From an uncultured Spirochaetaceae bacterium (lineage in GTDB: Bacteria; Spirochaetota; Spirochaetia; DSM-27196; PWMO01), in the NCBI GenBank assembly GCA_964654185.1, contig CAZZIE010000007.1:1-61028 (forward strand): a DNA stretch of 61,028 nt, read 5' to 3'. The notes below the pieces were generated by a model. It ran no database searches and was not told the DNA's origin. It saw only the letters and a program-made list of their open reading frames with translations. Made by a program: the position numbers and the translations under genes. Of this stretch, positions 1 through 40,657 are shown piece after piece (positions within the stretch are counted from its first letter, which is position 1; the number at the start of each line of letters is the position of its first letter).

Positions 1-55
1 TATTATGCGATACGGGATCTGGCCCAGGCAAATCAACAGGGTTGTGGGTAGGTTA
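1..55 (-). repeat. Truncated copy (D) of the ~165-bp terminal-inverted-repeat element family
   Basis: 32-55 (ATCAACAGGGTTGTGGGTAGGTTA) is the exact 24-nt reverse complement of 27371-27394. The rest of the element runs off the window edge. Confidence 0.85.
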
Positions 56-5117: not shown

Positions 5118-6206
5118 ATGAGCCGCGACCACATGAGCGAGACACTGCGCCGCGCCGCCGAGATCACCGCCCGACCCGGAGAGATCCGCGCCGCCGCGCG
5201 CCTGGTTGCCGGTGACGGCACGGTCCTGGCGGAGGTCGCCGGTGCGCTGCCTCGCCTCCCGGGCTACCCGGCGAGCCTGCTCCCGGACTCACCGGCCACA
5301 CCGGACGCACCGGACTCACCGGTGGGCATGAACGGGGCCACCCTCTACGTAACGGTGGACCCCTTCGATCTTCCCGCTACGCTTCGCCATGGCGGTGCCC
5401 CGACAAGGGGCGACCAGTCTGCGGCAGACGGCGCCGCCGGACCCGATGCGGCCGCGACGGCGCAGCGTATTGCCGACGCCGGTGTGGCCCGGGTGCGCAT
5501 TGCCATGCCGCCGCTCGCGCTGCTGAGTCGGGGGGCGCACCTTCCAGAGGACGCGGTCGAAGCGGACGCGGCGGACGCCACCCCGCTTGGGGAGGCGCTG
5601 GCCCGCGCCCGAGTCGCCGTGGAGCTGGGGGTATGCGGTCCGGAGGCGCTGATCTTGAACGAGGCTCCGATCGTCGGCGCCCTCCGGGGTGCACCGTTCA
5701 CGCATCTCTTCGTCGTGCAGACCCTCGACGGCCGACGCCTTCGCTCGGATGCGTATTCGGCGGCGGTCATCGCCCTCAGAGACGCCGTACACCGGCGGTA
5801 CGACCGCGTCGTTGGCGCTGATCCATCGCCGGAGGCGGATCCTGATGCGCCCGTCCTGACCGACCTCGTGGCGCGAGACGACTGGGATCGGCTCACCGTG
5901 GCCACGCTTCCCCGGGTGTTCGGGAACGGCGCGGAAACCATCGGCGACATTGGGGTGCGGGAGTTGGCGGACGTGAAGCGCCTCGAGAAGGCCGTGTGGT
6001 GGACCCTGGACGGGGTCGTGGCGGTGAGCGGATATCGCGCCCCGGAGGAGACCTTCGGATCGGCGGCGGCGCGTCTGATTCGCGAAGCTTCACCCCTCGT
6101 CTACCTGCCGGGTAGCACCGGTGATTTCGCTGCTCCCCGCAAGGAAAGTGTTCTCTCTATCCTCGATCGGCGGCGGAAGCCCTCCTCACACACCAACTCG
6201 CCATAA
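5118..6206 (+). CDS. Degenerate RibD-like deaminase/reductase homologue
   Basis: ATLYVTVDPF, AGVARVRIAM and VAVELGVCGPEALILNE...GAPFTHLFVVQTLDGR follow the RibD layout. The HAE and PCxxC zinc ligands are absent. Confidence 0.6.
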   Translation: MSRDHMSETLRRAAEITARPGEIRAAARLVAGDGTVLAEVAGALPRLPGYPASLLPDSPATPDAPDSPVGMNGATLYVTVDPFDLPATLRHGGAPTRGDQSAADGAAGPDAAATAQRIADAGVARVRIAMPPLALLSRGAHLPEDAVEADAADATPLGEALARARVAVELGVCGPEALILNEAPIVGALRGAPFTHLFVVQTLDGRRLRSDAYSAAVIALRDAVHRRYDRVVGADPSPEADPDAPVLTDLVARDDWDRLTVATLPRVFGNGAETIGDIGVRELADVKRLEKAVWWTLDGVVAVSGYRAPEETFGSAAARLIREASPLVYLPGSTGDFAAPRKESVLSILDRRRKPSSHTNSP

Positions 6207-6368
6207 CCTGCTAAGAACCCTGTTGATGAGATTCCGGCAAGTCACGCTGCAAAGGAAGGTTACGCGGCTGTAGACTCGTGAAGGAGGTTTCGGACGGTCT
6301 GCCGCCGCCAAGCCATGCGGCTGTAGCACTTTATGGGATGCGCCATCAACAGGGTTCCGAGTACGTTG
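6204..6368 (+). repeat. ~165-bp TIR element, copy A
   Basis: Left arm TAACCTGCTAAGAACCCTGTTGATG (6204-6228), right arm CATCAACAGGGTTCCGAGTACGTTG (6344-6368), 115-nt core. Confidence 0.9.
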
Positions 6369-18764: not shown

Positions 18765-19922
18765 ATGGCAGCAGAACGAGATAGACAGACACGCGGCTCT
18801 TTGGCACGCGGCTCCTTTTCGAGCGGCTCCTTCGGACGCACATTCTTCATTGTCGTACTCCTGGCGGTGACCGCCCTCGTTGTGGTGATTGTCCGGCGCT
18901 TCCTCATGGCTGCCCTCCTGGCGGCGATTACCGCGGCCCTCTTCTACCCGTTCTACCGCTTCTTCGAACGGCGCATTCCAATTCGGCGACTTGCCGCCCT
19001 GGTCGCGCTCATACTTGTCATCGTGGTATTCGTCGTGCCCCTGGCGGCCTTCGCATACCTGGCGGTCGACACCGTCGCCGGCTTCATGCAGAACCTGCAG
19101 GAGGGGTCGGCCCCGGTCCGCAACGAGGTCCGACAGGTCGTGGAAGCGGTCATGGAGTGGCCGATCTTCAGGCGCTTCGACATCGACCCGGGAGATATTG
19201 TTCAGAACCTCCTTGCAGGCCTGAACGTCGTGGATGCACAGTTGCTCACCAGTGTGCGCTCGGTGGTTCAGTCCGTCGGGGCGACGGCGCTGAACATCTT
19301 CATCTATGTGTACAGCCTCTACTTCTTCTTTCGGGACGGACCGACGCTTCTGAGGCGGATCTTCGAGCGCATTCCCATGCGCCGGCAGGATAAGGACGTG
19401 CTCTTGGAGAAGTTCGTCACCGTCACCCGCGCGACCATCAAGGGCACCATCATCATCGGCATCTTCCAGGGCGCCATCGGCGGACTTGTCATGTTCGTTC
19501 TCGGACTGCCCGGCGCGGTGGTGTGGGGGGTGCTCCTCTTCTTCCTGGCGGCCATCCCCAACTTCGGCGCAATTCTCGTCTGGCTGCCGGCGTCCATCTA
19601 CCTCTTCCTCACCGGCGCCATTGCCCGGGGCATCCTCATGGTCGCCCTCGCCGGCGGACTCCTGGCGGCGGTGGACTACCTGCTCCGCCCGCGCCTCATT
19701 GAAGAGGACATCCGGGTGCATCAGCTCCTTGTCCTCTTCAGCGTGCTCGGCGGCCTCATTGTCTTCGGCGTATTCGGCCTCATCCTCGGGCCCATCATCA
19801 TGGCCGTCTTCGTCAAGATGTGGGAGATCTACGGCGACCTCTTCCACCATGAGATCGAAGCTGCCGAGCATCCCGCAGTCTCATCTCAGGAAGAGCATGA
19901 ACCTCCGGAAGATCATGAATAG
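18765..19922 (+). CDS. AI-2E family transporter
   Basis: Multi-TM protein with DYLLRPRLI and FGVFGLILGPII motifs. Confidence 0.9.
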   Translation: MAAERDRQTRGSLARGSFSSGSFGRTFFIVVLLAVTALVVVIVRRFLMAALLAAITAALFYPFYRFFERRIPIRRLAALVALILVIVVFVVPLAAFAYLAVDTVAGFMQNLQEGSAPVRNEVRQVVEAVMEWPIFRRFDIDPGDIVQNLLAGLNVVDAQLLTSVRSVVQSVGATALNIFIYVYSLYFFFRDGPTLLRRIFERIPMRRQDKDVLLEKFVTVTRATIKGTIIIGIFQGAIGGLVMFVLGLPGAVVWGVLLFFLAAIPNFGAILVWLPASIYLFLTGAIARGILMVALAGGLLAAVDYLLRPRLIEEDIRVHQLLVLFSVLGGLIVFGVFGLILGPIIMAVFVKMWEIYGDLFHHEIEAAEHPAVSSQEEHEPPEDHE

Positions 19923-20556
19923 GGACGATGCCCCCAGGGACCGCCCGGAAGAACGAATCGAGGCGCTGCTGCGCGCCTTCGCGGTGAAGCGGACAACCCG
20001 CGCGGGCTGGCACCGGGTCGGTGTCGGGGACCCGGAGTCGGTGGGCGACCACTCCTGGGGGACGGCGCTCCTTGCGCTGGAGTTCGCCGGCCTTGCCGGT
20101 GTGCCCGCGCACCGCGCCGCCGCCATGGCGGTGGTCCACGACCTCCCCGAGGCGATCACCGGCGACGTGCCGTACCGTCCGGAGGGGCGGGCGGGCCCGG
20201 ACGAGCAGCGGGCGCGCCTGGATGTCCCGGCGGGTGGGGCGACGCCGGAGCACGCGGTGCGCGGCGGGAAGGCGGAGCGTGAGGCCGCCGCCATGGCGGA
20301 GCTCACTGCGGAAGGCGACGAGGCGCGAACGCTCTGGAATGAGTACGAGGCAGGGGCTACTCCGACGGCGCAGTTCGTCCGGGACATGAACCTCATCGAC
20401 ATGTGTCTGCAGGCGGTGATCTACGCCGAGGCGGAGGCTTCTCCCGGCCACGATTCGCTCCGGGAGTTCCTGGATTCCTCCGCGCCCCGCCTGCAGACCA
20501 AAGTGGGGCGCAGACTATTTGCCGCGCTGGATCGGCGCTTCTTGGACAGCCGGTAA
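19915..20556 (+). CDS. HD-domain hydrolase (YfbR/HDDC2-like)
   Basis: RAGW...ESVGDHSW, VVHDLPEAITGD, LWNEYE and FVRDMN. Confidence 0.85.
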   Translation: MNRDDAPRDRPEERIEALLRAFAVKRTTRAGWHRVGVGDPESVGDHSWGTALLALEFAGLAGVPAHRAAAMAVVHDLPEAITGDVPYRPEGRAGPDEQRARLDVPAGGATPEHAVRGGKAEREAAAMAELTAEGDEARTLWNEYEAGATPTAQFVRDMNLIDMCLQAVIYAEAEASPGHDSLREFLDSSAPRLQTKVGRRLFAALDRRFLDSR

Positions 20557-20605
20557 TCCACCTGTAAAATGGGTGTCCAACCACACCGCGGGAGGAGCAG
20601 TCTGC

Positions 20606-21370
20606 ATGCCCTATCTACATCTGCTGGGAACCGGCGCAGCCATGAGCGATCCACACCGTACTGTCACCATGCTCGCCCTCGAGGATGAGCATGACCTCTA
20701 CCTCATCGACTGCGGTGGCGACACCATTCAGCGCCTGCTCCTGCTCGGAACGCCGCTGGAGAAGCTTCGCGGCGTGGTCATCACGCATGAGCATCCCGAC
20801 CACGTGGCCGGGTTCCCCCTCCTCATGGAGAAGCTCTGGCTTGCCGGACGGCGCGATCCGGTGGATGTGTACGGCATTGAGCCGGCGCTGGGAACGGCAG
20901 ATCAACTCCTGGCTACCTTCGATACCTCCGGATGGGAGGGCATGCCGGAGATCCGCTGGCATGAGGTCGCCCATGAGCCCGGCGCGGCCGTTCTGTCGGA
21001 GGGCCCCTGGACCATGACGGCGGCGCCCGGCATTCATTCGGTTCCCGTCGTCGGGCTGCGAGTAGGGTACCAGGCCGGAGAGAACGAGATGCCGCGCGTC
21101 CTGGCGTACTCCTGCGACACCGAGTACGCCGACGACATTGTCGAACTTGCCTCGGATGCGGACGTGCTGGTGCATGAGGCGACCGGCCCCATGGAGGGGC
21201 ACAGTAGCGCGCGGGATGCCGCGGCGGTTGCCTCCCGCGCGACCTGCGGCCGCCTGCTTCTGGTGCACCTCCCGCCGGCGGCATCACTTACCGACGAGAT
21301 GATCACTCAGGCCCGCGGTATCTTTGCCAACCTGGACCGAGGCCGCGAAGGGGGAACCTATCCATGGTAG
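20606..21370 (+). CDS. MBL-fold metallo-hydrolase (RNase Z-like)
   Basis: LLGTG, LIDCG, ITHEHPDHVAG, YSCDT, LVHEAT and LVHL. Confidence 0.85.
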   Translation: MPYLHLLGTGAAMSDPHRTVTMLALEDEHDLYLIDCGGDTIQRLLLLGTPLEKLRGVVITHEHPDHVAGFPLLMEKLWLAGRRDPVDVYGIEPALGTADQLLATFDTSGWEGMPEIRWHEVAHEPGAAVLSEGPWTMTAAPGIHSVPVVGLRVGYQAGENEMPRVLAYSCDTEYADDIVELASDADVLVHEATGPMEGHSSARDAAAVASRATCGRLLLVHLPPAASLTDEMITQARGIFANLDRGREGGTYPW

Positions 21371-21404
21371 TCCGGGAGCCGGTGGTTGAAGGAGAGGAAC
21401 GAGC

Positions 21405-23129
21405 ATGAAACGAATAATCGACGCATTGACCCGACGCTACGATGAACGGGACCTCCTGGTGCGCCGGCGCGCACGTCTCTTCGTGGTGGTGGTGTTCATC
21501 ATTGCGCTGCTGACCATCCTCAACTTCGTGAGTGAGGTGGCTCTCGGGACAACGGACCTCGGCTCCGTTCTCGGCAATATCGCTCTGATCGTCGTCTACA
21601 TTGTCACGGTTGTGATCATGGCGAGTGGCCGCTACCAGCTCGCAACGACGATCTTCCTGCTTTTCACCATTGCCGGCGTTGCCCTGACCGTTCTCACACT
21701 CCCCGAGGTGAATGCAACGACGAGCTACCGGATGGCCGCGGGGCTGCTCCTCCCGCTTGTTGCGGCGGCGGTCGTGGCCTTGCGATATTACCAGGTCATC
21801 CTTTCGGGGGCTCTCGCCGTGGGCCTTCACCTCTACTTCCATTTCGCAAGGATCGTGCCCGCCGTGCAGGGGCCGGCCGCCGCGGACGTCCTGGGCTCGA
21901 CCCTTGTGTATCTGATCGTTGCTACGGTTCTCGTGGTGGCGGCGGTGTGGATGACCCAGCGGCTCATGCAAACTGCGGAAGAGCAAACCGACGCGAGCCG
22001 CACACGCCTCGAGGAGATGCAGACTCTGGTGGCGACTTCAGAGGAGGGCTTCCGGGTCGGCGCTTCAGTCCAGCAGGAAATCCAGGCGGTTCGCTCCAGC
22101 ATTGAGCAGGTCGAGCGCACCATGCGCTCCCTCCGGGATCGCATGCAGGACCTTGCCACACGGCATGACGGTATCCGCAACGCCAACCAAGCAGTCGCCG
22201 AGGCGACCGCGACGGTGAAGCGCGTCGTCATGGATCAGAACAGCGCCACCGAGGAGAGCTCCGCCTCCATTGCGGAGATGGCCGCATCGATTCGCAGCAT
22301 CGACGAGGTCGCGCGCTCCAAGAAGAGCCTTGCCGACGGTCTCGCCCAGACCGCCCAGGAAGGGCAGACCCAGATGGACGAGTCCGTCGAGGCGATTGCG
22401 AGTCTCGCCGACAAGGTTTCCGAGATCTCCGACGTCGTAGGGGTGATCGAGAGCATCAGCGAGCAGACCAGCCTCTTGTCCATGAATGCCGCCATTGAGG
22501 CGGCCCACGCCGGCGAGCACGGCCGCGGCTTCGCCGTGGTGGCGGAGGAGATTCGAAAGCTCAGCGAGAACACCAGCGAGAACACCCACCGCATTGCCGA
22601 TACCATCAGCAGCATTGTCGAGCAGATCCGCCACACCCGGGAAACCAACAGCGAGGCCGGTGGCTACTTCCAGCGTATCACCAAAGAGATCTTCGACGTC
22701 CGGGACGCCATTGACGAGATGATCAGCGGTCTCGGGGAGCTTTCCACCGGTACCGGAGAGATGGACAAGGCGGTTCGCAGCCTCGTCGACGGGAGCCGCA
22801 CCGTCGACTCAACAATTGACGATGTCGACGGCAAGATCAAGGACAGCAACCAGGACATTGAGCAGCTCACCACCTACTCCACGCAACTCCTCGAAGAGGT
22901 CGACCAGGTCGTCTCGGAGGTCGAGCGCATTGAGCAGTCGGCCAACACCCTGGAGCAGATCGGCCGGCGCAATGTGGAGCAGCTCAAAGGCTTCGAGGAG
23001 AAGCTGAACAGCATAACCGGCGGCCGCGCCGGCGCGGACGACCGTGTCGGCGGCCCGGACGGCCGCACCACGGCGCCTGCCGGCACTCAGGAAGGTGAAT
23101 CGGAGGAGACGGGGATCCGCCTGGCGTAG
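21405..23129 (+). CDS. Methyl-accepting chemotaxis protein
   Basis: Multi-TM N-terminus, and [36 protein letters not shown]. Confidence 0.95.
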
Positions 23130-23207
23130 CCGCGCGGTTAAGCCAGGCGGCGGGCTGGTGCGGCGGGGCACCGCAGCTGCAGGCCGGGGCGGTCCGCCCG
23201 GCGGGTC

Positions 23208-24098
23208 TCAACCCCGAAGGCGCAGCAGGGCATCCCGCAGACGGTCGGGGAGAGGTGCAACCAGCCGCGCCGCCAGGCGTGCATCGGGACCGACAAGGTA
23301 GCGTGTGCGGGGTCGACGCGCCGTGAGCGCCCGGGCAACAACGCGCGCTACCGCGTCCGGCCGGATGCCCCGGTTCGGGGCCCGCTCGGCGTGGACGATC
23401 GCCTTCGTGATGCGGTCACCGTAGAGGGTCGTCGCCTCCACCGGCATCTGCTGCTGCATTGCGCGACCCGCCTCCAACGCCTTGTCCCAGAGGGGCGTAC
23501 GCACCGTTCCCGGCTCTACCGCCGCAACCCGGATTCCCTGCCGCTCCACCTCCATTCGCAGTGTGTCCGTCAGGCTCTCGACGGCAAACTTGCTCGCCGT
23601 GTAGGGCCCGCTCGGGCTGAAGGCAATCCGCCCGCCGATCGAGCTGACGTTGACCAGCCGCGCCCGGCGGTACCGCCCGGGCACGTCGCCACCGGCGCCG
23701 CTCCGTACCGTCGCCACATACTGCCGTAGCAGCGGCAGACAGAGCTGAGACATGGCCACCAGGGAGAACACGTTGACCTCGAACTGCCGGCGCAGCTCCT
23801 CGATTGGAACAAACTCGATCGGCGCCGCCAGGGCAATCCCGGCGTTGTTGACCACCCCGTAGAGCCCCGCCTCCCCGGCAAGCTCAGCAATGTGCTCCAC
23901 CGCTGCGCGCCGCGCGGCCTCATCGGTGACATCAAACACAAGGGGATGAATGCGCCGCGGCTCAGTCGCCGCCATCTCCGCCGCATCTTCCTCTCGCCGC
24001 ACCCCTGCAAAAACCGTGAACCCGCGGTTTGCCAGCTCATGCACCGTCGCCAGCCCAATGCCCTTCGACGCCCCCGTCACCAATACGTGCCTGGTCAT
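23208..24098 (-). CDS. SDR family oxidoreductase
   Basis: VTGASKGIG, VNNAGI, NVSSIGG and YTASK. Confidence 0.92.
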   Translation of the reverse strand: MTRHVLVTGASKGIGLATVHELANRGFTVFAGVRREEDAAEMAATEPRRIHPLVFDVTDEAARRAAVEHIAELAGEAGLYGVVNNAGIALAAPIEFVPIEELRRQFEVNVFSLVAMSQLCLPLLRQYVATVRSGAGGDVPGRYRRARLVNVSSIGGRIAFSPSGPYTASKFAVESLTDTLRMEVERQGIRVAAVEPGTVRTPLWDKALEAGRAMQQQMPVEATTLYGDRITKAIVHAERAPNRGIRPDAVARVVARALTARRPRTRYLVGPDARLAARLVAPLPDRLRDALLRLRG

Positions 24099-24140
24099 CT
24101 GCGCTTCCTCGCCGCCCGCCCCGGATCGGCGGCCGGACAC

Positions 24141-24169
24141 AAAAAAACCGGGCACCGCAGTGCCCGGTT
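24141..24169 (-). terminator. Rho-independent terminator
   Basis: On the minus strand AACCGGGCAC-TGCG-GTGCCCGG followed by a T7 tract, downstream of 24201-25472. Confidence 0.85.
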
Positions 24170-24200
24170 CAAGTATACGTCTTCTACAACGCTGGAGGGT

Positions 24201-25472
24201 CTACCAGAGGAGTCCGACGTTCAGACCCAGGCTGAGGCCGGGCCCCCGGTCTTCCTCCAGCGGGAAGTACACCGCTGCAGGGACATCGATCTTGAAGGGC
24301 CCAAGGTTGAATGCAGTTCCGAAGGTGATCCGCGGATTGAGAAAGGCGGGCTGGCTGCTGCTCACCTGACTCAGGGTGATGGAACCGCCGTTGGCGGAGA
24401 GATAGTCGCTTTCACCGAGGTAGCCGGTGACTTCCGCGCTTCCCTCCCCTTCGATAGCAATGTCCGATGAGCCGCCGAGGGAGAGGTCCACGCCTGCACC
24501 AAGGCTGAAGTCGAAGAGCCAGAGCAGGCGCAGTGCCGTAGCAACCTCAATGGGGATGGTCAGCGCGCGGTTTTCGACGCTGAGGCGCGCCTCCGGATTC
24601 AGCAAAACAGTTCCCAAGTCGGTTCCCGAGGGGTAATTCGTCGGATCTTGGTTTTCGAGGGCGATGTCCAGTTGCTCCAGATCGCCACCCTCGGTCAAGC
24701 CGAGTTGCTCTTTCGTAAGGTTGGCTTCGAAGCTTCCCTCTTCAAGGATATCCCCGACGGGAATTCCGATGCCAACACCGCTGCTGTGCAGAACGGCGCC
24801 GGCGCCGACGCTGATTCCCCGAAAGCGGATGGGACCGTTGGGCCAGAGATTGCCGACCAGGAGGTAGTTCAGGAAGCCGCCGACCGATCTGGACTGGATG
24901 TCGGCGGTAACGCCCTCTTCAATGGGAACGGACACGTCAATGCTGCCGAACTTGCCCGATAGGTAGAGCCCGTCAATGAGGAAGTCCATGCTGAGGCCCA
25001 GGGAAGCAGCCCAGGTCTGCCAGGCGCCACCAATGGCGGCGTTGTTGCCGAGCGCCTCATAGAGAGCTGCCGTAGGATCGGTGGCGTCCGCGGAGATTTC
25101 AACTGCCGGCAGCTGAACGCCGATGTTGGTCCCCGCAGCCAGGTAGAAGCTCTGGTAGTCGGTGTATGACCGCAGGGTGGCGACATTCGTGGCAAAGATC
25201 CCCGCATTGGCAAAGGCCCCTGCGAGATTGCTCAGGTCGGGCAGTTGGCCCAGTGCTTCGTCGGCGGAGGAAACCGCGCCGTCTACCTGGGTTGCCAGCT
25301 TGGTGTTGACGGTGTTTTCCCAATCGTTGATATCAGTCTGAGTGATTCCGCCCTGATCTGCGAGGGAATCATCGATCTCGATGCTCGGGTACGTGCCGAC
25401 CGTCACCTGTGCCGTGGCAACGGAAGCTCCAAGAAGCGCCAAAACTATTGCTATTGTCACTATTCGTTTCAC
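24201..25472 (-). CDS. Secreted, probable outer-membrane beta-barrel protein (spirochaete Lsa36-like family)
   Basis: GTG start with a GAGGAG RBS, signal peptide, AGAFANAG motif, alternating beta-strands and a C-terminal Trp. The family name is from recall only. Confidence 0.55.
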   Translation of the reverse strand: MKRIVTIAIVLALLGASVATAQVTVGTYPSIEIDDSLADQGGITQTDINDWENTVNTKLATQVDGAVSSADEALGQLPDLSNLAGAFANAGIFATNVATLRSYTDYQSFYLAAGTNIGVQLPAVEISADATDPTAALYEALGNNAAIGGAWQTWAASLGLSMDFLIDGLYLSGKFGSIDVSVPIEEGVTADIQSRSVGGFLNYLLVGNLWPNGPIRFRGISVGAGAVLHSSGVGIGIPVGDILEEGSFEANLTKEQLGLTEGGDLEQLDIALENQDPTNYPSGTDLGTVLLNPEARLSVENRALTIPIEVATALRLLWLFDFSLGAGVDLSLGGSSDIAIEGEGSAEVTGYLGESDYLSANGGSITLSQVSSSQPAFLNPRITFGTAFNLGPFKIDVPAAVYFPLEEDRGPGLSLGLNVGLLW

Positions 25473-25627
25473 AACAAAACTCCTCGTGCCCCGGGTCGTT
25501 CGCCTGGAGCTGTTCTCCTGTGTTTCAAACATAGCCCTGTAGCGAGCATATATCAAAGTGACGGGATGCGGAAGGAGAAGAACCTGAAACGGGTCTGGGA
25601 ATTCCGCGAAGCGTGTCGCAAAAGGGC

Positions 25628-25666
25628 GGGCGCCGACCGGTCCGGGCGCCGACCGGTCCGGGCGCC
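25628..25666. repeat. 16-bp tandem repeat GGGCGCCGACCGGTCC (about 2.4 copies)
   Basis: Read directly from the sequence, immediately left of element B. Confidence 0.75.
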
Positions 25667-25676
25667 GGGCGAACTC

Positions 25677-25842
25677 TAACGTACTCAGAACCGTGTTGAT
25701 GGCCCGAGAGCCAGCTCCTTTCGGGACCGAGAGATAAGCAGCCGGTCGCAGGTAAAGGGACGCCTGACATGGCGGGGTCCTCGCAACACCTTTCGACCGC
25801 GGCGGATACGCCGGAGCCATCAACACGGTTCTGAGTAGGTTG
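25677..25842 (-). repeat. ~165-bp TIR element, copy B
   Basis: Arms TAACGTACTCAGAACCGTGTTGATG (25677-25701) and CATCAACACGGTTCTGAGTAGGTTG (25818-25842), 116-nt core, flanked by the direct repeat GGGCGAACTC. Confidence 0.9.
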
Positions 25843-25868
25843 GGCGAACTCCTCCTTCCGCCGACACA

Positions 25869-26288
25869 TTACCGCGCGGGGCGGATCTCGTAGTCGTAGG
25901 TGATGGTGGCGCCGGTGCGGAGCATCTCGCCGACGGAGCAGTACTTGTTCACCGCGAGGTCGAGGGCGCGGGCGGCCTTCGCCTCGTCGACGGGGCCTAT
26001 GAGCGTGAAGTGGAGGTGGATCGCGGTGAAGGGAGCGGGAGACGTGTCGGGGCGAGTGCCGTTGACATCGATCTCAATGTCTTCCAATCCGGCCCGCTGC
26101 TTGCGCAGGATTTCCACGAGATCCATGGAGGCGCAGGTCGCAAGGGCGGCAAGGAGGGTTTCCATGGGGCGCAGGCCGGCGCCTTCGCCGCCGATGGCCG
26201 GGGCGCCGTCGATGTGGATTTCGGCGCCGTCTGTGTTGCGGGCGACGAAGTGGACGCGGTCGTTGGCGCGGTGGAGTGATACGTTCAT
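25869..26288 (-). CDS. OsmC/YhfA family protein
   Basis: RPMETLLAALATCASMD...AVNKYCSV. Confidence 0.9.
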   Translation of the reverse strand: MNVSLHRANDRVHFVARNTDGAEIHIDGAPAIGGEGAGLRPMETLLAALATCASMDLVEILRKQRAGLEDIEIDVNGTRPDTSPAPFTAIHLHFTLIGPVDEAKAARALDLAVNKYCSVGEMLRTGATITYDYEIRPAR

Positions 26289-26306
26289 GGGTCTTTCATA
26301 GTAAAA

Positions 26307-26323
26307 TCGACTTACTCAGTCAA
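26307..26323. promoter_or_regulatory. Rrf2-family (IscR/CymR-like) operator candidate
   Basis: TCGACT-N5-AGTCAA near-palindrome between the divergent osmC-like gene and cysM. It matches the YYGACT-N5-AGTCRR core of IscR type 1 sites. Confidence 0.5.
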
Positions 26324-26371
26324 CTAAGTGAAGACTTGCTGGGGCGATGTGAATTGGCTACCCTGACACTC

Positions 26372-27373
26372 ATGAACATCAAGACCATTGAAGAGTGTGT
26401 CGGCAACACGCCGCTGGTGAAGCTGCAGCGACTCTATCAGGGCGCCAACACGGTGCTCTGCAAGCTGGAAGGGGACAACCCCGCCGGGTCGGTGAAGGAT
26501 CGGCCCGCCCTCAGCATGATTCGCCGCGCTGAAGAGGCGGGGCGAATCAAGCCCGGGGACACGCTGATTGAGGCGACGAGCGGCAACACGGGCATTGCGC
26601 TGGCGATGGTTGCGGCGGCGCGAGGCTACAAGATGGTCGTGATCATGCCCGAGCACATGAGCGAGGAGCGCCGCGCGGTCATGCGCGCCTACGGCGCCGA
26701 GCTGATCCTCACCTCCAAAGAGGGGAGCATGGAGGAGGCCATTGATACGGCGCGGCGGATGGAGTCGGAGGGCCGCGGCGTGATCCTGGACCAGTTCTCC
26801 AACCCGGACAACCCGCGCGCCCACTACGAGACGACGGGGCCCGAGGTGTGGCGGGACACGGACGGTCGGATCACGCACTTTGTGGCATCGACCGGGACGA
26901 CGGGCACGCTGATGGGAACCTCCCAGTACTTGAAGGAGCAGAACCCGGACATCCGCATTGTCGGGGTTACTCCGGACGCCGAAGGCGGCATTCCGGGGAT
27001 CCGCAAGTGGCCGAAGGAGTACGAGCCGCGGATCTTCGATGAGTCGCGTCTGGACGAGCGGCGGCAGGTCGGCCGGGAAGAGGCCGTCGCCATGATGCGC
27101 GCCCTCGCCCGAGAAGAGGGCATCTTCGGGGGCATTTCCTCCGGGGGGAACGTTGCCGTGGCGTTGCGGCTGGCCCGGGAGCTCGAGGTGGAAGGCCCTG
27201 CGCCGGCGGCCCGCCACGGGACGGGCGCCAGTGGGGCGGGTGCCGGCAGGACGGGTGCCGGCAGGACGGGTGCCGGCGGGGCAGGATCCCCCCGGACGGG
27301 CTCCGAGGGGGCGGTGATCGTGACGGTGATCTGTGATCGGGGAGACCGCTACCTCTCAACGGGCCTCTTTTAA
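26372..27373 (+). CDS. cysM: Cysteine synthase B (O-acetylserine sulfhydrylase)
   Basis: KLEGDNPAGSVKDR, EATSGNTG, GTTGT, PGIRKW, EEGIFGGISSG and CDRGDRYLSTG. Confidence 0.93.
   Translation: MNIKTIEECVGNTPLVKLQRLYQGANTVLCKLEGDNPAGSVKDRPALSMIRRAEEAGRIKPGDTLIEATSGNTGIALAMVAAARGYKMVVIMPEHMSEERRAVMRAYGAELILTSKEGSMEEAIDTARRMESEGRGVILDQFSNPDNPRAHYETTGPEVWRDTDGRITHFVASTGTTGTLMGTSQYLKEQNPDIRIVGVTPDAEGGIPGIRKWPKEYEPRIFDESRLDERRQVGREEAVAMMRALAREEGIFGGISSGGNVAVALRLARELEVEGPAPAARHGTGASGAGAGRTGAGRTGAGGAGSPRTGSEGAVIVTVICDRGDRYLSTGLF
27238..27277. repeat. In-frame 15-bp tandem repeat within cysM
   Basis: GGGTGCCGGCAGGAC about 2.7 times, encoding GAGRT repeats. Confidence 0.85.
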
Positions 27374-27535
27374 CCTACCCACAACCCTGTTGATGCCGTA
27401 GCGGGTAACTCACGGTGGCGCAGAGGCTTCGCCGTTTCTGCGGGCTGGATGCATGCGTATCGTGTTCGCAAGGCGCCAACGTCTGCTGATGCAAGGCGTT
27501 GGGCCGCTCCCATCAACAGGGTTCTGAGTACTTAA
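27371..27535 (+). repeat. ~165-bp TIR element, copy C
   Basis: Arms TAACCTACCCACAACCCTGTTGATG (27371-27395) and CATCAACAGGGTTCTGAGTACTTAA (27511-27535), 115-nt core. Confidence 0.9.
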
Positions 27536-28137
27536 AAGGAGCCCCAGCCGATGCGCAGGCCGATCACCGGCGTGTACGACAGAAAATCCCTGAATATCAC
27601 CCCTGGCAGCACGTTGCCGATCACCTGGTAGCCGGCGTAAACGGTCGGGGTGAACCACTCCACGAAGGGCAACCCCGCCTCCAGGGTCAGCTCCTGGAAG
27701 ATGGCGAAGTACGAGTCCGCGGTGCTGACGCGCCCGGCATTCTCCAGGGAGACACCGCCGAGGCCCGTCCAGCTTGTCAGGGTCAGGTAGATCGGCCGGC
27801 GCAGGATTCGCCATCCACCGATGACGCCGCCGAACCCGGCTGAGATCCCGCCGTCGGAATCGTAGGGATCGAAGACCCCGATGCCGAAGCCGCCGCTGAT
27901 GCCGCCGCCTCCGGTCACGCCGTAGCCGAAGCCGCCAATGTAGGTCAGACCCAGGTTGTTGTTCTGGATCCGGTAGTCTTCGAGGAAGGGATACTCACTT
28001 GTCTGATTGCCGATGATGAGGCCTCCGGCCCCGCCGCCGCGGGAATCTGCGGCTGCGGTTCCCACGCCGAGGAGGAGCAAGAAGACGACCGCGAGGGCCG
28101 TAAGGCGCCGTCGAGTCAGTGATCGATGTGTGTTCAT
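27532..28137 (-). CDS. Secreted Gly-rich hypothetical protein, possibly a small outer-membrane beta-barrel
   Basis: Signal peptide, amphipathic Gly-rich strands and a C-terminal Phe. Confidence 0.55.
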   Translation of the reverse strand: MNTHRSLTRRRLTALAVVFLLLLGVGTAAADSRGGGAGGLIIGNQTSEYPFLEDYRIQNNNLGLTYIGGFGYGVTGGGGISGGFGIGVFDPYDSDGGISAGFGGVIGGWRILRRPIYLTLTSWTGLGGVSLENAGRVSTADSYFAIFQELTLEAGLPFVEWFTPTVYAGYQVIGNVLPGVIFRDFLSYTPVIGLRIGWGSF

Positions 28138-28214
28138 ATGAAATGGTATATCGCACCGGCACGGCATTCGTCAGCCCCGTGGGGCGACGGAGCCCGCAGC
28201 CCGGGCGGAGGACG

Positions 28215-36245: not shown

Positions 36246-36254
36246 GGCCGCGCG

Positions 36255-36344
36255 CCGTGGGCGGCCAGCCCCCGTGGGCGGCCAGCTCCCGTGGGCGGCC
36301 AGCCCCCGTGGGCGGCCGGCCCCCGTGGGCGGCCGGCCCCCGTG
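36255..36344. repeat. 17-bp tandem minisatellite CCGTGGGCGGCC(A/G)GC(C/T)C (about 5.3 copies)
   Basis: Units at 36255, 36272, 36289, 36306 and 36323 plus a partial unit, with no spacers. Confidence 0.9.
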
Positions 36345-36425
36345 CCCCGGTCGCACCGCCGCCCCGGGCTGATCGACTTGCCGCCCCGGGCCGGCCCCGA
36401 CACATCTTGGAGGCAGGAGTACTCA

Positions 36426-40516: not shown

Positions 40517-40657
40517 GTAGGGCCGACCCCGGGGGTGAGCGGGCGGCCCCGGGGTCGGGGGCGCGGGCGCAGCCGAACGCGCGCGGGCGCGGCCGAACGC
40601 CGGCGCCGGCTCGGACGGGCCGGCGGCCGAGGGTGAGCGGGCGGCCCCGGGGTCGGG
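40517..40657. repeat. GC-rich palindromic/direct repeat cluster (REP-like)
   Basis: GTAG, then the 12-bp inverted repeat CCGACCCCGGGG/CCCCGGGGTCGG (40523-40558). GGGTGAGCGGGCGGCCCCGGGGTCGGG recurs near 40631. Confidence 0.6.

Follow-up and report, generated by a model that had tools for sequence, protein, structure and literature searches.

Copy B, an element of 165 bp at positions 25677-25841 of the window, is in all likelihood a recently inserted, non-autonomous MITE flanked by a 10-bp target-site duplication (TSD), and the change that its two arms share is an inherited variant and not evidence for a functional hairpin. The window, that is the whole stretch of 61,028 nucleotides analysed here, is contig C7 of a 4.85-Mb assembly with 368 contigs and a G+C content of 63%.

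Layout of copy B and its neighbourhood

The features of the window to which the following sections refer are listed below.

1-55, plus strand: right end of an IS of about 1.3 kb, with the last transposase codons (..DLAQANQQGCG) and the 25-bp terminal repeat
6204-6368: copy A, a further member of the MITE family with 165 bp, in which no TSD remains
24201-25475, minus strand: gene for a signal-peptide protein (named 'OMP' in the first-pass annotation); no Pfam match
25627-25667: perfect 16-nt tandem repeat, 2.6 copies, sharing its last base with the left TSD copy
25667-25676: left copy of the putative TSD, GGGCGAACTC; exact 10/10 repeat, abuts the element end
25677-25701: left terminal inverted repeat of B, TAACGTACTCAGAACCGTGTTGATG, composed of the outer 12 nt TAACGTACTCAG and the inner 13 nt AACCGTGTTGATG
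25702-25817: non-coding core of B, 116 nt, in register with other copies
25818-25841: right terminal inverted repeat of B, CATCAACACGGTTCTGAGTAGGTT, composed of CATCAACACGGTT and CTGAGTAGGTT
25842-25851: right copy of the putative TSD, GGGCGAACTC; exact 10/10 repeat
25869-26288, minus strand: OsmC-like gene (PF02566, E 1.4e-20)
27371-27535: copy C, an old insertion of the same MITE family, with the stop codon of a convergent gene on either side

The inverted ends of B (24/25 nt) both contain AACCGTG, and the arms agree at 23/24 compared positions. A reciprocal change in the two arms had been described in the first-pass annotation and was found again here: the base is G in both arms of B and C in those of copies A (6216/6356) and C (27383/27523). 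The 10-bp direct repeat was likewise present as described, with GGGCGAACTC at 25667-25676 and 25842-25851 abutting both arms; the surrounding host DNA reads ...GGGCGCC to the left of the left repeat and CTCCTTCC to the right of the right one. What had been taken for a further small copy, 'copy D', is instead the right end of a full-length IS that is cut by the start of the contig, and the TAG stop codon of its transposase lies inside the terminal repeat.

Copy B lies 26 nt downstream of the osmC stop codon. It lies about 200 nt upstream of the start of the signal-peptide protein gene, which is encoded on the same strand as osmC, and also upstream of the promoter-like site of that gene (25556-25528). 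With up to two mismatches allowed, the window contains 12 occurrences of the 13-nt arm motif, compared to 2.6 expected, and no shuffled sequence reached 12. Other repeats of the window are five overlapping copies of a GC-rich unit with a period of 17 nt (GGCCAGCCCCCGTGGGC; 36246-36361) and a GC-rich 31-nt repeat whose copies are 98 nt apart (40529-40657). A database look-up of the exact OsmC protein sequence returned no record, a metagenome scan for the right junction of B gave 0 matches, and a search of the available literature library for the arm sequence revealed no relevant paper.

A MITE family expanded in one lineage

The genome contains at least 54 elements with paired arms. The span from AACC to GGTT measures exactly 141 nt in 49 of the 54 copies, which corresponds to an element of 165 bp with full 25-nt ends. 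The cores measure 115-116 nt, and copies in both orientations could be aligned in register without a conserved reading frame. Ungapped core identities form a chain from 100% down to approximately 43%, with all oriented copies free of gaps, and the conserved islands with fixed columns are CAAGTCACG near 35, TT at 57-58, CCAA at 105-108 and TT at 128-129. That the length hardly changes although the cores diverge by as much as about 55% suggests that the transposition complex requires a certain geometry, and we suspect that it is the spacing of the paired ends that is constrained.

A pattern scan with fixed spacing detected 50 copies in the genome and 0 with the reversed control pattern, while the same scan over 40 relatives returned 0-2 copies each. 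Copies with the 141-nt spacing were found once in the sister species G002, once in G012, which belongs to another genus of the family, and twice in G038, which belongs to another family of the order. Based on these counts at identical spacing across the 40 relatives, the MITE family is old and its expansion is confined to the lineage of the studied genome. The copies G038:C1:156091-156231, G038:C40:34105-34245 and G012:C191:651-791 have the same arms and unrelated, more AT-rich cores. The arm motif AAsCnTGTTGAT is common to 108/108 arms, the IS ends and a related IS of another genus.

Within this family the core of B is 44-74% identical to complete relatives and 94-98% identical to two truncated siblings located at contig ends. 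Since these siblings are as close as 97.7% and 93.6%, B is a member of a young, active subfamily.

The partner IS and its transposase

The 25-bp ends of the MITE match the ends of an IS of approximately 1.3 kb. These IS ends (TAACCTACCCACAACCCTGTTGATT) lie at or close to contig ends in 32 places, 16 for each end type, from where they run into IS-internal sequence. The partner IS is accordingly present in about 16 copies in the genome, which break the assembly at both ends, and the interior of the IS is absent from the assembly bin. The fragmentation of the assembly is caused by the very IS that is the partner of the MITE. The right end encodes the C-terminus of a transposase (...RDLAQANQQGCG). 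A metagenome contig from the ENA (L073) contains an ORF of 396 aa at 24-1214 whose C-terminus is almost identical and which has the same right end, and together with the 116-nt left leader of the studied genome this ORF gives an IS length of about 1.31 kb. An exact search for the IS end in the genome contig collection and a metagenome scan for the left IS end gave 0 matches each. As the interior of this multi-copy IS is missing from the assembly, it is the matching ends that point to a mobilisation of the MITE in trans by the 396-aa transposase.

Homologues in other genera have 389-407 aa. A homologue search returned 312 proteins, all of them unnamed or labelled 'transposase-like', and the seven loci recovered in the genome collection all belong to uncultured Spirochaetaceae or Spirochaetales. 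The transposase family occurs in 28 of the 41 genomes of the order that were searched, and closed genomes carry 12-14 copies of it. Among the relatives, the ends are clearest at locus L008, where the inner motif reads AACCCTGTTGAT on the left and CTTTGTTGAT on the right and the outer 12 nt differ; variants of the inner motif such as AGCGTGTTG were found in the IS of other relatives. The IS copies of the closed relatives G036 and G028 have different ends, and no clear TSD was readable in them. The studied genome also encodes a second IS of the same Pfam-less family, present as a single copy at C53:17831-19018 with 396 aa and the ends AACCTTGTGGGTTTG. Because its ends are different, it is probably not the partner of the MITE. 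By reading of the alignments, the spacing CAA-N19-TTG stands at the same register in the ends of the MITE and in the left end of the partner IS. A direct derivation of the core from the IS by deletion was considered and rejected, as only the 25-bp ends and this spacing are shared.

A Pfam search assigned the transposase to no family even at E = 10, DDE_Tnp_IS1 included. All 23 of the 23 aligned members have sub-threshold NCBIfam matches to transpos_IS1 (best E 3.5e-9) and ISL3 (best E 8e-9), and the scores for transpos_IS1 fall well short of the 100 bits set as the curated cut-off. These matches extend over the zinc-finger/helix-turn-helix part into the beginning of the catalytic part, and there are sub-threshold matches to zinc-domain and helix-turn-helix models. 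An AlphaFold (AF2) model of the transposase reached a pLDDT of 82. Since its best structural matches are retroviral integrases, ISCth4, the Mu and Metnase transposases and RNase H, the model indicates a catalytic core with a predicted RNase-H fold of the DDE type. Invariant acidic residues include D124, D214 and E271/E275, and we infer that the members of the catalytic triad are among them. The members belong to no Pfam family, none of them passes a curated NCBIfam model, and annotation pipelines call them hypothetical; the family deserves a model of its own.

Target-site duplications and empty sites

For the scoring of TSDs the element was taken as T-AACC...GGTT(-A), with the last base of the right end being ambiguous; the TSD is 9 or 10 bp long. 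Flanking repeats matched at 10/10 positions in five copies, at 9/10 in five, at 8/10 in one and at 7/10 in one. A match of 9-10/10 hence occurs in 10 of 54 copies, compared to approximately 0.05 expected. When flanks of different copies were cross-paired (2862 pairs), a 10/10 match never occurred and 9/10 was reached in 0.1%. The flank sequences of the TSD-bearing copies are unrelated to each other. In 42 of 54 copies a recognisable TSD is missing; their flanks are no more alike than those of controls, and the distribution is bimodal and not graded. Copies A and C, for which the first-pass annotation had reported no 10-bp flanking repeat, are among the copies of this kind, with matches at 5/10 and 2/10 positions, respectively. 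Pairing of the 16 left with the 16 right IS ends by TSD yielded a single 9/10 match. As 42 of 54 copies and, one pairing excepted, the IS ends have no TSD, a TSD is not the rule among surviving copies. Its absence might be due to intramolecular transposition that deleted or inverted neighbouring DNA, to recombination between copies, or to contigs that are missing. The copy at C9:46731-46895 (C9:46743) has exactly the sequence of two copies with a TSD, those on C17 and C176, and yet no flanking repeat.

Contig C107 of the sister species G002 is syntenic with positions 18823-28155 of the window. Because the spacer between the osmC homologue and the upstream gene comprises only 80 nt there, compared to 295 nt with B in the window, B is absent from the syntenic site of G002. 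The spacer of G002 on the osmC side is too diverged to be aligned or to display a single GGGCGAACTC. In G001 and G003, which belong to the same genus, osmC homologues with only 72-75% identity were found and no element near them, so that these genomes are uninformative about an empty site.

Predicted empty sites of the nine copies whose repeats are exact were therefore constructed and used as queries across the genus. At the site of the C1:75607 copy, the sequence of G002 is ungapped across the junction with 91% identity and contains a single AGTACACCC, whereas the element of the studied genome is flanked by AATACACCC on either side. G002 thus has a precise empty site at C1:75607. The site of the C17:38078 copy is ambiguous, since G002 has no element there and the flanking sequence already occurs twice, in a tandem repeat with a period of 16 nt; a flanking repeat can thus pre-exist. 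Perfect tandem repeats with a 16-nt period adjoin two insertion sites, namely window 25627-25667 and L035 (G002:C114, orthologous to C17:38078), where the G002 unit includes the sequence flanking the element in the studied genome; they could be footprints of excision or a coincidence of GC-rich spacers. Fourteen further copies were checked at the corresponding sites of G002: none of these sites contains the element, five of them align straight across the junction, and the rest are diverged, partly unmatched or broken by N runs. In the G002 loci L051, L052, L053 and L040, the N runs are bracketed by GC-rich direct repeats and made the orthologous sites unreadable.

Together, the geometry shared with other copies, the absence of B in G002, the empty site at C1:75607, the siblings with 94-98% identity and the matching IS with its transposase bear out the earlier proposal that the repeat around B is a TSD left by a recent insertion. 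The insertion chemistry, which the first-pass annotation had left open, can now be narrowed to a TSD of 9-10 bp and a partner with a predicted RNase-H-fold (DDE-type) transposase; on the other side, most copies, one very young copy among them, have no TSD.

Folding of the element

The whole of B folds with -89.4 kcal/mol (z = -7.8), and the excess stability comes from the arms. The nested stems that the first-pass annotation had proposed for the core do appear in the predicted fold. Their stability, however, does not exceed chance: the core alone (116 nt) has a z-score of -0.92, and 31 of 200 shuffled sequences fold at least as well. An RNAalifold consensus of the 47 unique copies kept only 6-8 pairs of the arm stem on either strand. 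Mutual information across the core columns is dominated by the subfamily signal; the top pairs are mostly not Watson-Crick pairs, and no nested set was found among them. A structured non-coding RNA family was also considered and rejected, as the Rfam scan of the window gave no match and the core showed neither a conserved structure nor covariation.

Association with gene ends and the old copy C

The positions of the elements relative to genes were analysed for 108 element ends, with counts that rest on crude ORF calls based on high GC3. The 3' end of a gene is faced within 60 nt by 63 of the 108 ends. At 21 of those 63 ends the terminal TAA of the element is the stop codon of the neighbouring gene, and at 26 the stop codon is located 1-20 nt before the element; only two ORFs run on to an in-frame TGA at positions 21-23. 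By one crude ORF call, 23 copies are located between convergent genes and two between divergent genes; a stricter call gives 17 copies between convergent 3' ends. The orientation of the elements relative to the adjacent gene (20 vs 9) shows no significant bias. Insertion into terminator hairpins was rejected as an explanation, since flank complementarity is 4.94 compared to 4.91 in controls, and so was a preference for AT-rich targets, since the flanks have about 35% AT and the genome on average 37%. As the flanks are neither self-complementary nor AT-rich, the clustering at 3' ends may reflect either target choice or the survival of harmless insertions.

Copy C is present at the same site in G002, and both convergent genes end in the termini of the element. 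The stop codons within these termini are TAA in the studied genome and TGA and TAA in G002. The pattern scan of G002 detected no copy besides the one at this site. Between the two genomes the core of copy C is 77% identical without an indel; the outer arms agree at 18/24 positions and the inner arms at 26/26, which has a probability of about 1e-3 at the rate of the core. In this single orthologous pair, the retention hints at constraint on the inner arms of copy C after insertion. One might speculate that the elements are domesticated 3'-end modules, such as a bidirectional terminator or a protein-binding site, or that the transposase picks gene ends, with the inner 13-bp arms and the 141-nt spacing being kept after insertion and the elements targeted to, or retained at, stop codons; we consider this rather doubtful.

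The arm change of copy B and alternative explanations

To analyse the arms, the left arm was compared with the reverse complement of the right arm at each position in the 54 copies. At the position that had been flagged (AACC[C]TG), both arms read C in 28 copies; in four copies including B the two arms share one change, in two the changes differ, and in 20 only one arm is changed. The arms are hence identical in 32 copies, compared to 28.3 expected from shuffling (p = 0.09). Over the 13 nt of the inner arm 12 concordant cells stand against 74 discordant ones, and over all 25 arm positions 51 against 248; at position 9, the arms differ in 34 of 54 copies. The hexamer TGTTGA is invariant in 108/108 arms, which is partly due to ascertainment, as copies were found with at most two mismatches in the 13-mer. 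Among the relatives of B, the sibling C45 carries G in the arm that matches the left arm of B and the sibling C72 in the arm that matches the right one. The more distant relative C117 has G in both arms, and C23 and C221 have it in one. Since C45 and C72 carry G in the corresponding arms, the G/G state of B was inherited from its source copy, at a position that is tolerant. The first-pass annotation had argued from covariation that the hairpin is functional or the arms homogenised, and had itself named the balance of compensatory and disruptive arm changes as the measure. By that measure the argument fails, because arm changes are mostly non-matching and discordant cells outnumber concordant ones. 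The apparent compensatory change hence gives no evidence of a functional hairpin, and the value of this result lies mainly in clearing up the matter.

That the hairpin is nevertheless functional, as RNA or as DNA cruciform, and that selection keeps the arms complementary, which would make the change in B truly compensatory, seems unlikely. The strong fold of the whole element relative to shuffled sequences, the intact inner arms of old copy C beside a core of 77% identity to the sister species, and the location of copies at the 3' ends of genes, where hairpins can terminate or stabilise transcripts, would all be in line with such a function. They are opposed by the excess of discordant cells in the inner arm and the insignificant result at the flagged position, and also by what is conserved: TGTTGA is kept in the 108 arms as a sequence, which is beyond mere pairing, and the arm motif is equally kept in the ends of transposase-coding relatives. 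In addition, the core structure is not conserved and the orientation of the copies is not significantly biased. Even less probable is a homogenisation of the arms after insertion, be it through mismatch repair on a hairpin that has snapped back or through gene conversion acting within or between copies. The arms differ at the flagged position in 20 and at position 9 in 34 of 54 copies, and the G in the siblings C45 and C72 indicates an inherited state. An excess of matching arms does exist, small and not significant at positions 15 and 17 (p = 0.10 and 0.09) and nominal at positions 1 and 12 (p = 0.046 and 0.01), but such a weak excess is explicable by subfamily relatedness alone.

The direct repeat of B could also be a piece of local tandem repetition that existed before the element arrived, and not a TSD. 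A perfect tandem repeat of 16 nt runs right up to the left GGGCGAACTC, and at C17:38078 the element-free G002 already has a duplicated flank with a period of 16 nt. Nonetheless, we regard this explanation as highly improbable: GGGCGAACTC is distinct from the unit of the adjoining tandem repeat, both of its copies adjoin the element with no base in between, this geometry is found again with unrelated flanks in 10 of 54 copies, and the empty site at C1:75607 has a single copy.

A model for the insertion of copy B

If B is a recently inserted MITE, its 25-bp terminal inverted repeats would be the binding and cleavage sites of a transposase that is supplied in trans by the IS of about 1.3 kb. This protein of 396 aa would consist of an N-terminal zinc-finger/helix-turn-helix part followed by the RNase-H-fold (DDE-type) core. 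It probably cuts the target in a staggered fashion, 9-10 bp apart, and repair of the gaps would then give rise to the duplication of GGGCGAACTC. B would have landed in a permissive spot, past the stop codon of osmC and upstream of the promoter-like site of the next gene. The G in both arms would represent a variant of the putative transposase-binding motif AA[C/G]C[C/G/T]TGTTGAT, at a position that is degenerate and tolerates change. It would already have been present as G/G in the source copy of the young subfamily of B, in place of a double mutation that preserves pairing.

Comparison with known systems

Integron attC sites resemble the elements in their imperfect inverted repeats, conserved ends, variable centre and similar length (up to about 140 bp). 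An attC reading was rejected, as the ends ..CAGAACC and GGTTCTGAG do not fit RYYYAAC and GTTRRRY. In contrast to attC sites, the copies are not arrayed; they are dispersed on many contigs in both orientations and have the ends of a DDE-type IS as well as TSDs. The Correia elements of Neisseria have a length of about 100-155 bp, 26-bp inverted ends, a TA duplication and effects on transcripts. The B family is similar to them in size, in long inverted ends that would form a strong hairpin in read-through RNA and in its location near gene ends, whereas its TSD has 9-10 bp instead of TA and there is no sequence similarity.

Members of the IS1 family encode a zinc finger and a helix-turn-helix in the N-terminus and a DDE core, have ends of about 23 bp and mostly generate 9-bp duplications. 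The partner IS is comparable in its sub-threshold transpos_IS1 matches, its TSD of 9-10 bp and its 25-bp ends, and with a zinc finger/helix-turn-helix part and an RNase-H-fold core it apparently works in the manner of IS1. It differs in that it scores below the cut-off, has ISL3 matches that are equally good and encodes a single ORF of 396 aa without a frameshift. Membership in IS1 was rejected: because transpos_IS1 stays below 100 bits and Pfam gives no match, so that the curated models do not apply, the partner was not filed under this family.

Copy B and its partner are a MITE with its IS and hence a known kind of element. The elements are short and non-coding, have terminal inverted repeats, share their ends with a transposase-coding IS and show TSDs together with an empty site (C1:75607). 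RUP of Streptococcus pneumoniae is a bacterial MITE that is mobilised in trans by an IS. MITEAba12 of Acinetobacter is another bacterial MITE that an IS mobilises in trans (PMC6382973), and a survey of MITEs published in NAR in 2024 notes a cluster of MITE-rich genomes within the Spirochaetes (PMC11602168). The B family differs from bacterial MITEs in a partner transposase without a Pfam family, in the large number of copies without a TSD, and in cores that differ by up to about 55% while the length is fixed in 49 of 54 copies and in other genera. What it has in common with them is the small size, the lack of coding capacity, the ends shared with an IS, the tens of mostly intergenic copies and the TSDs in young copies.
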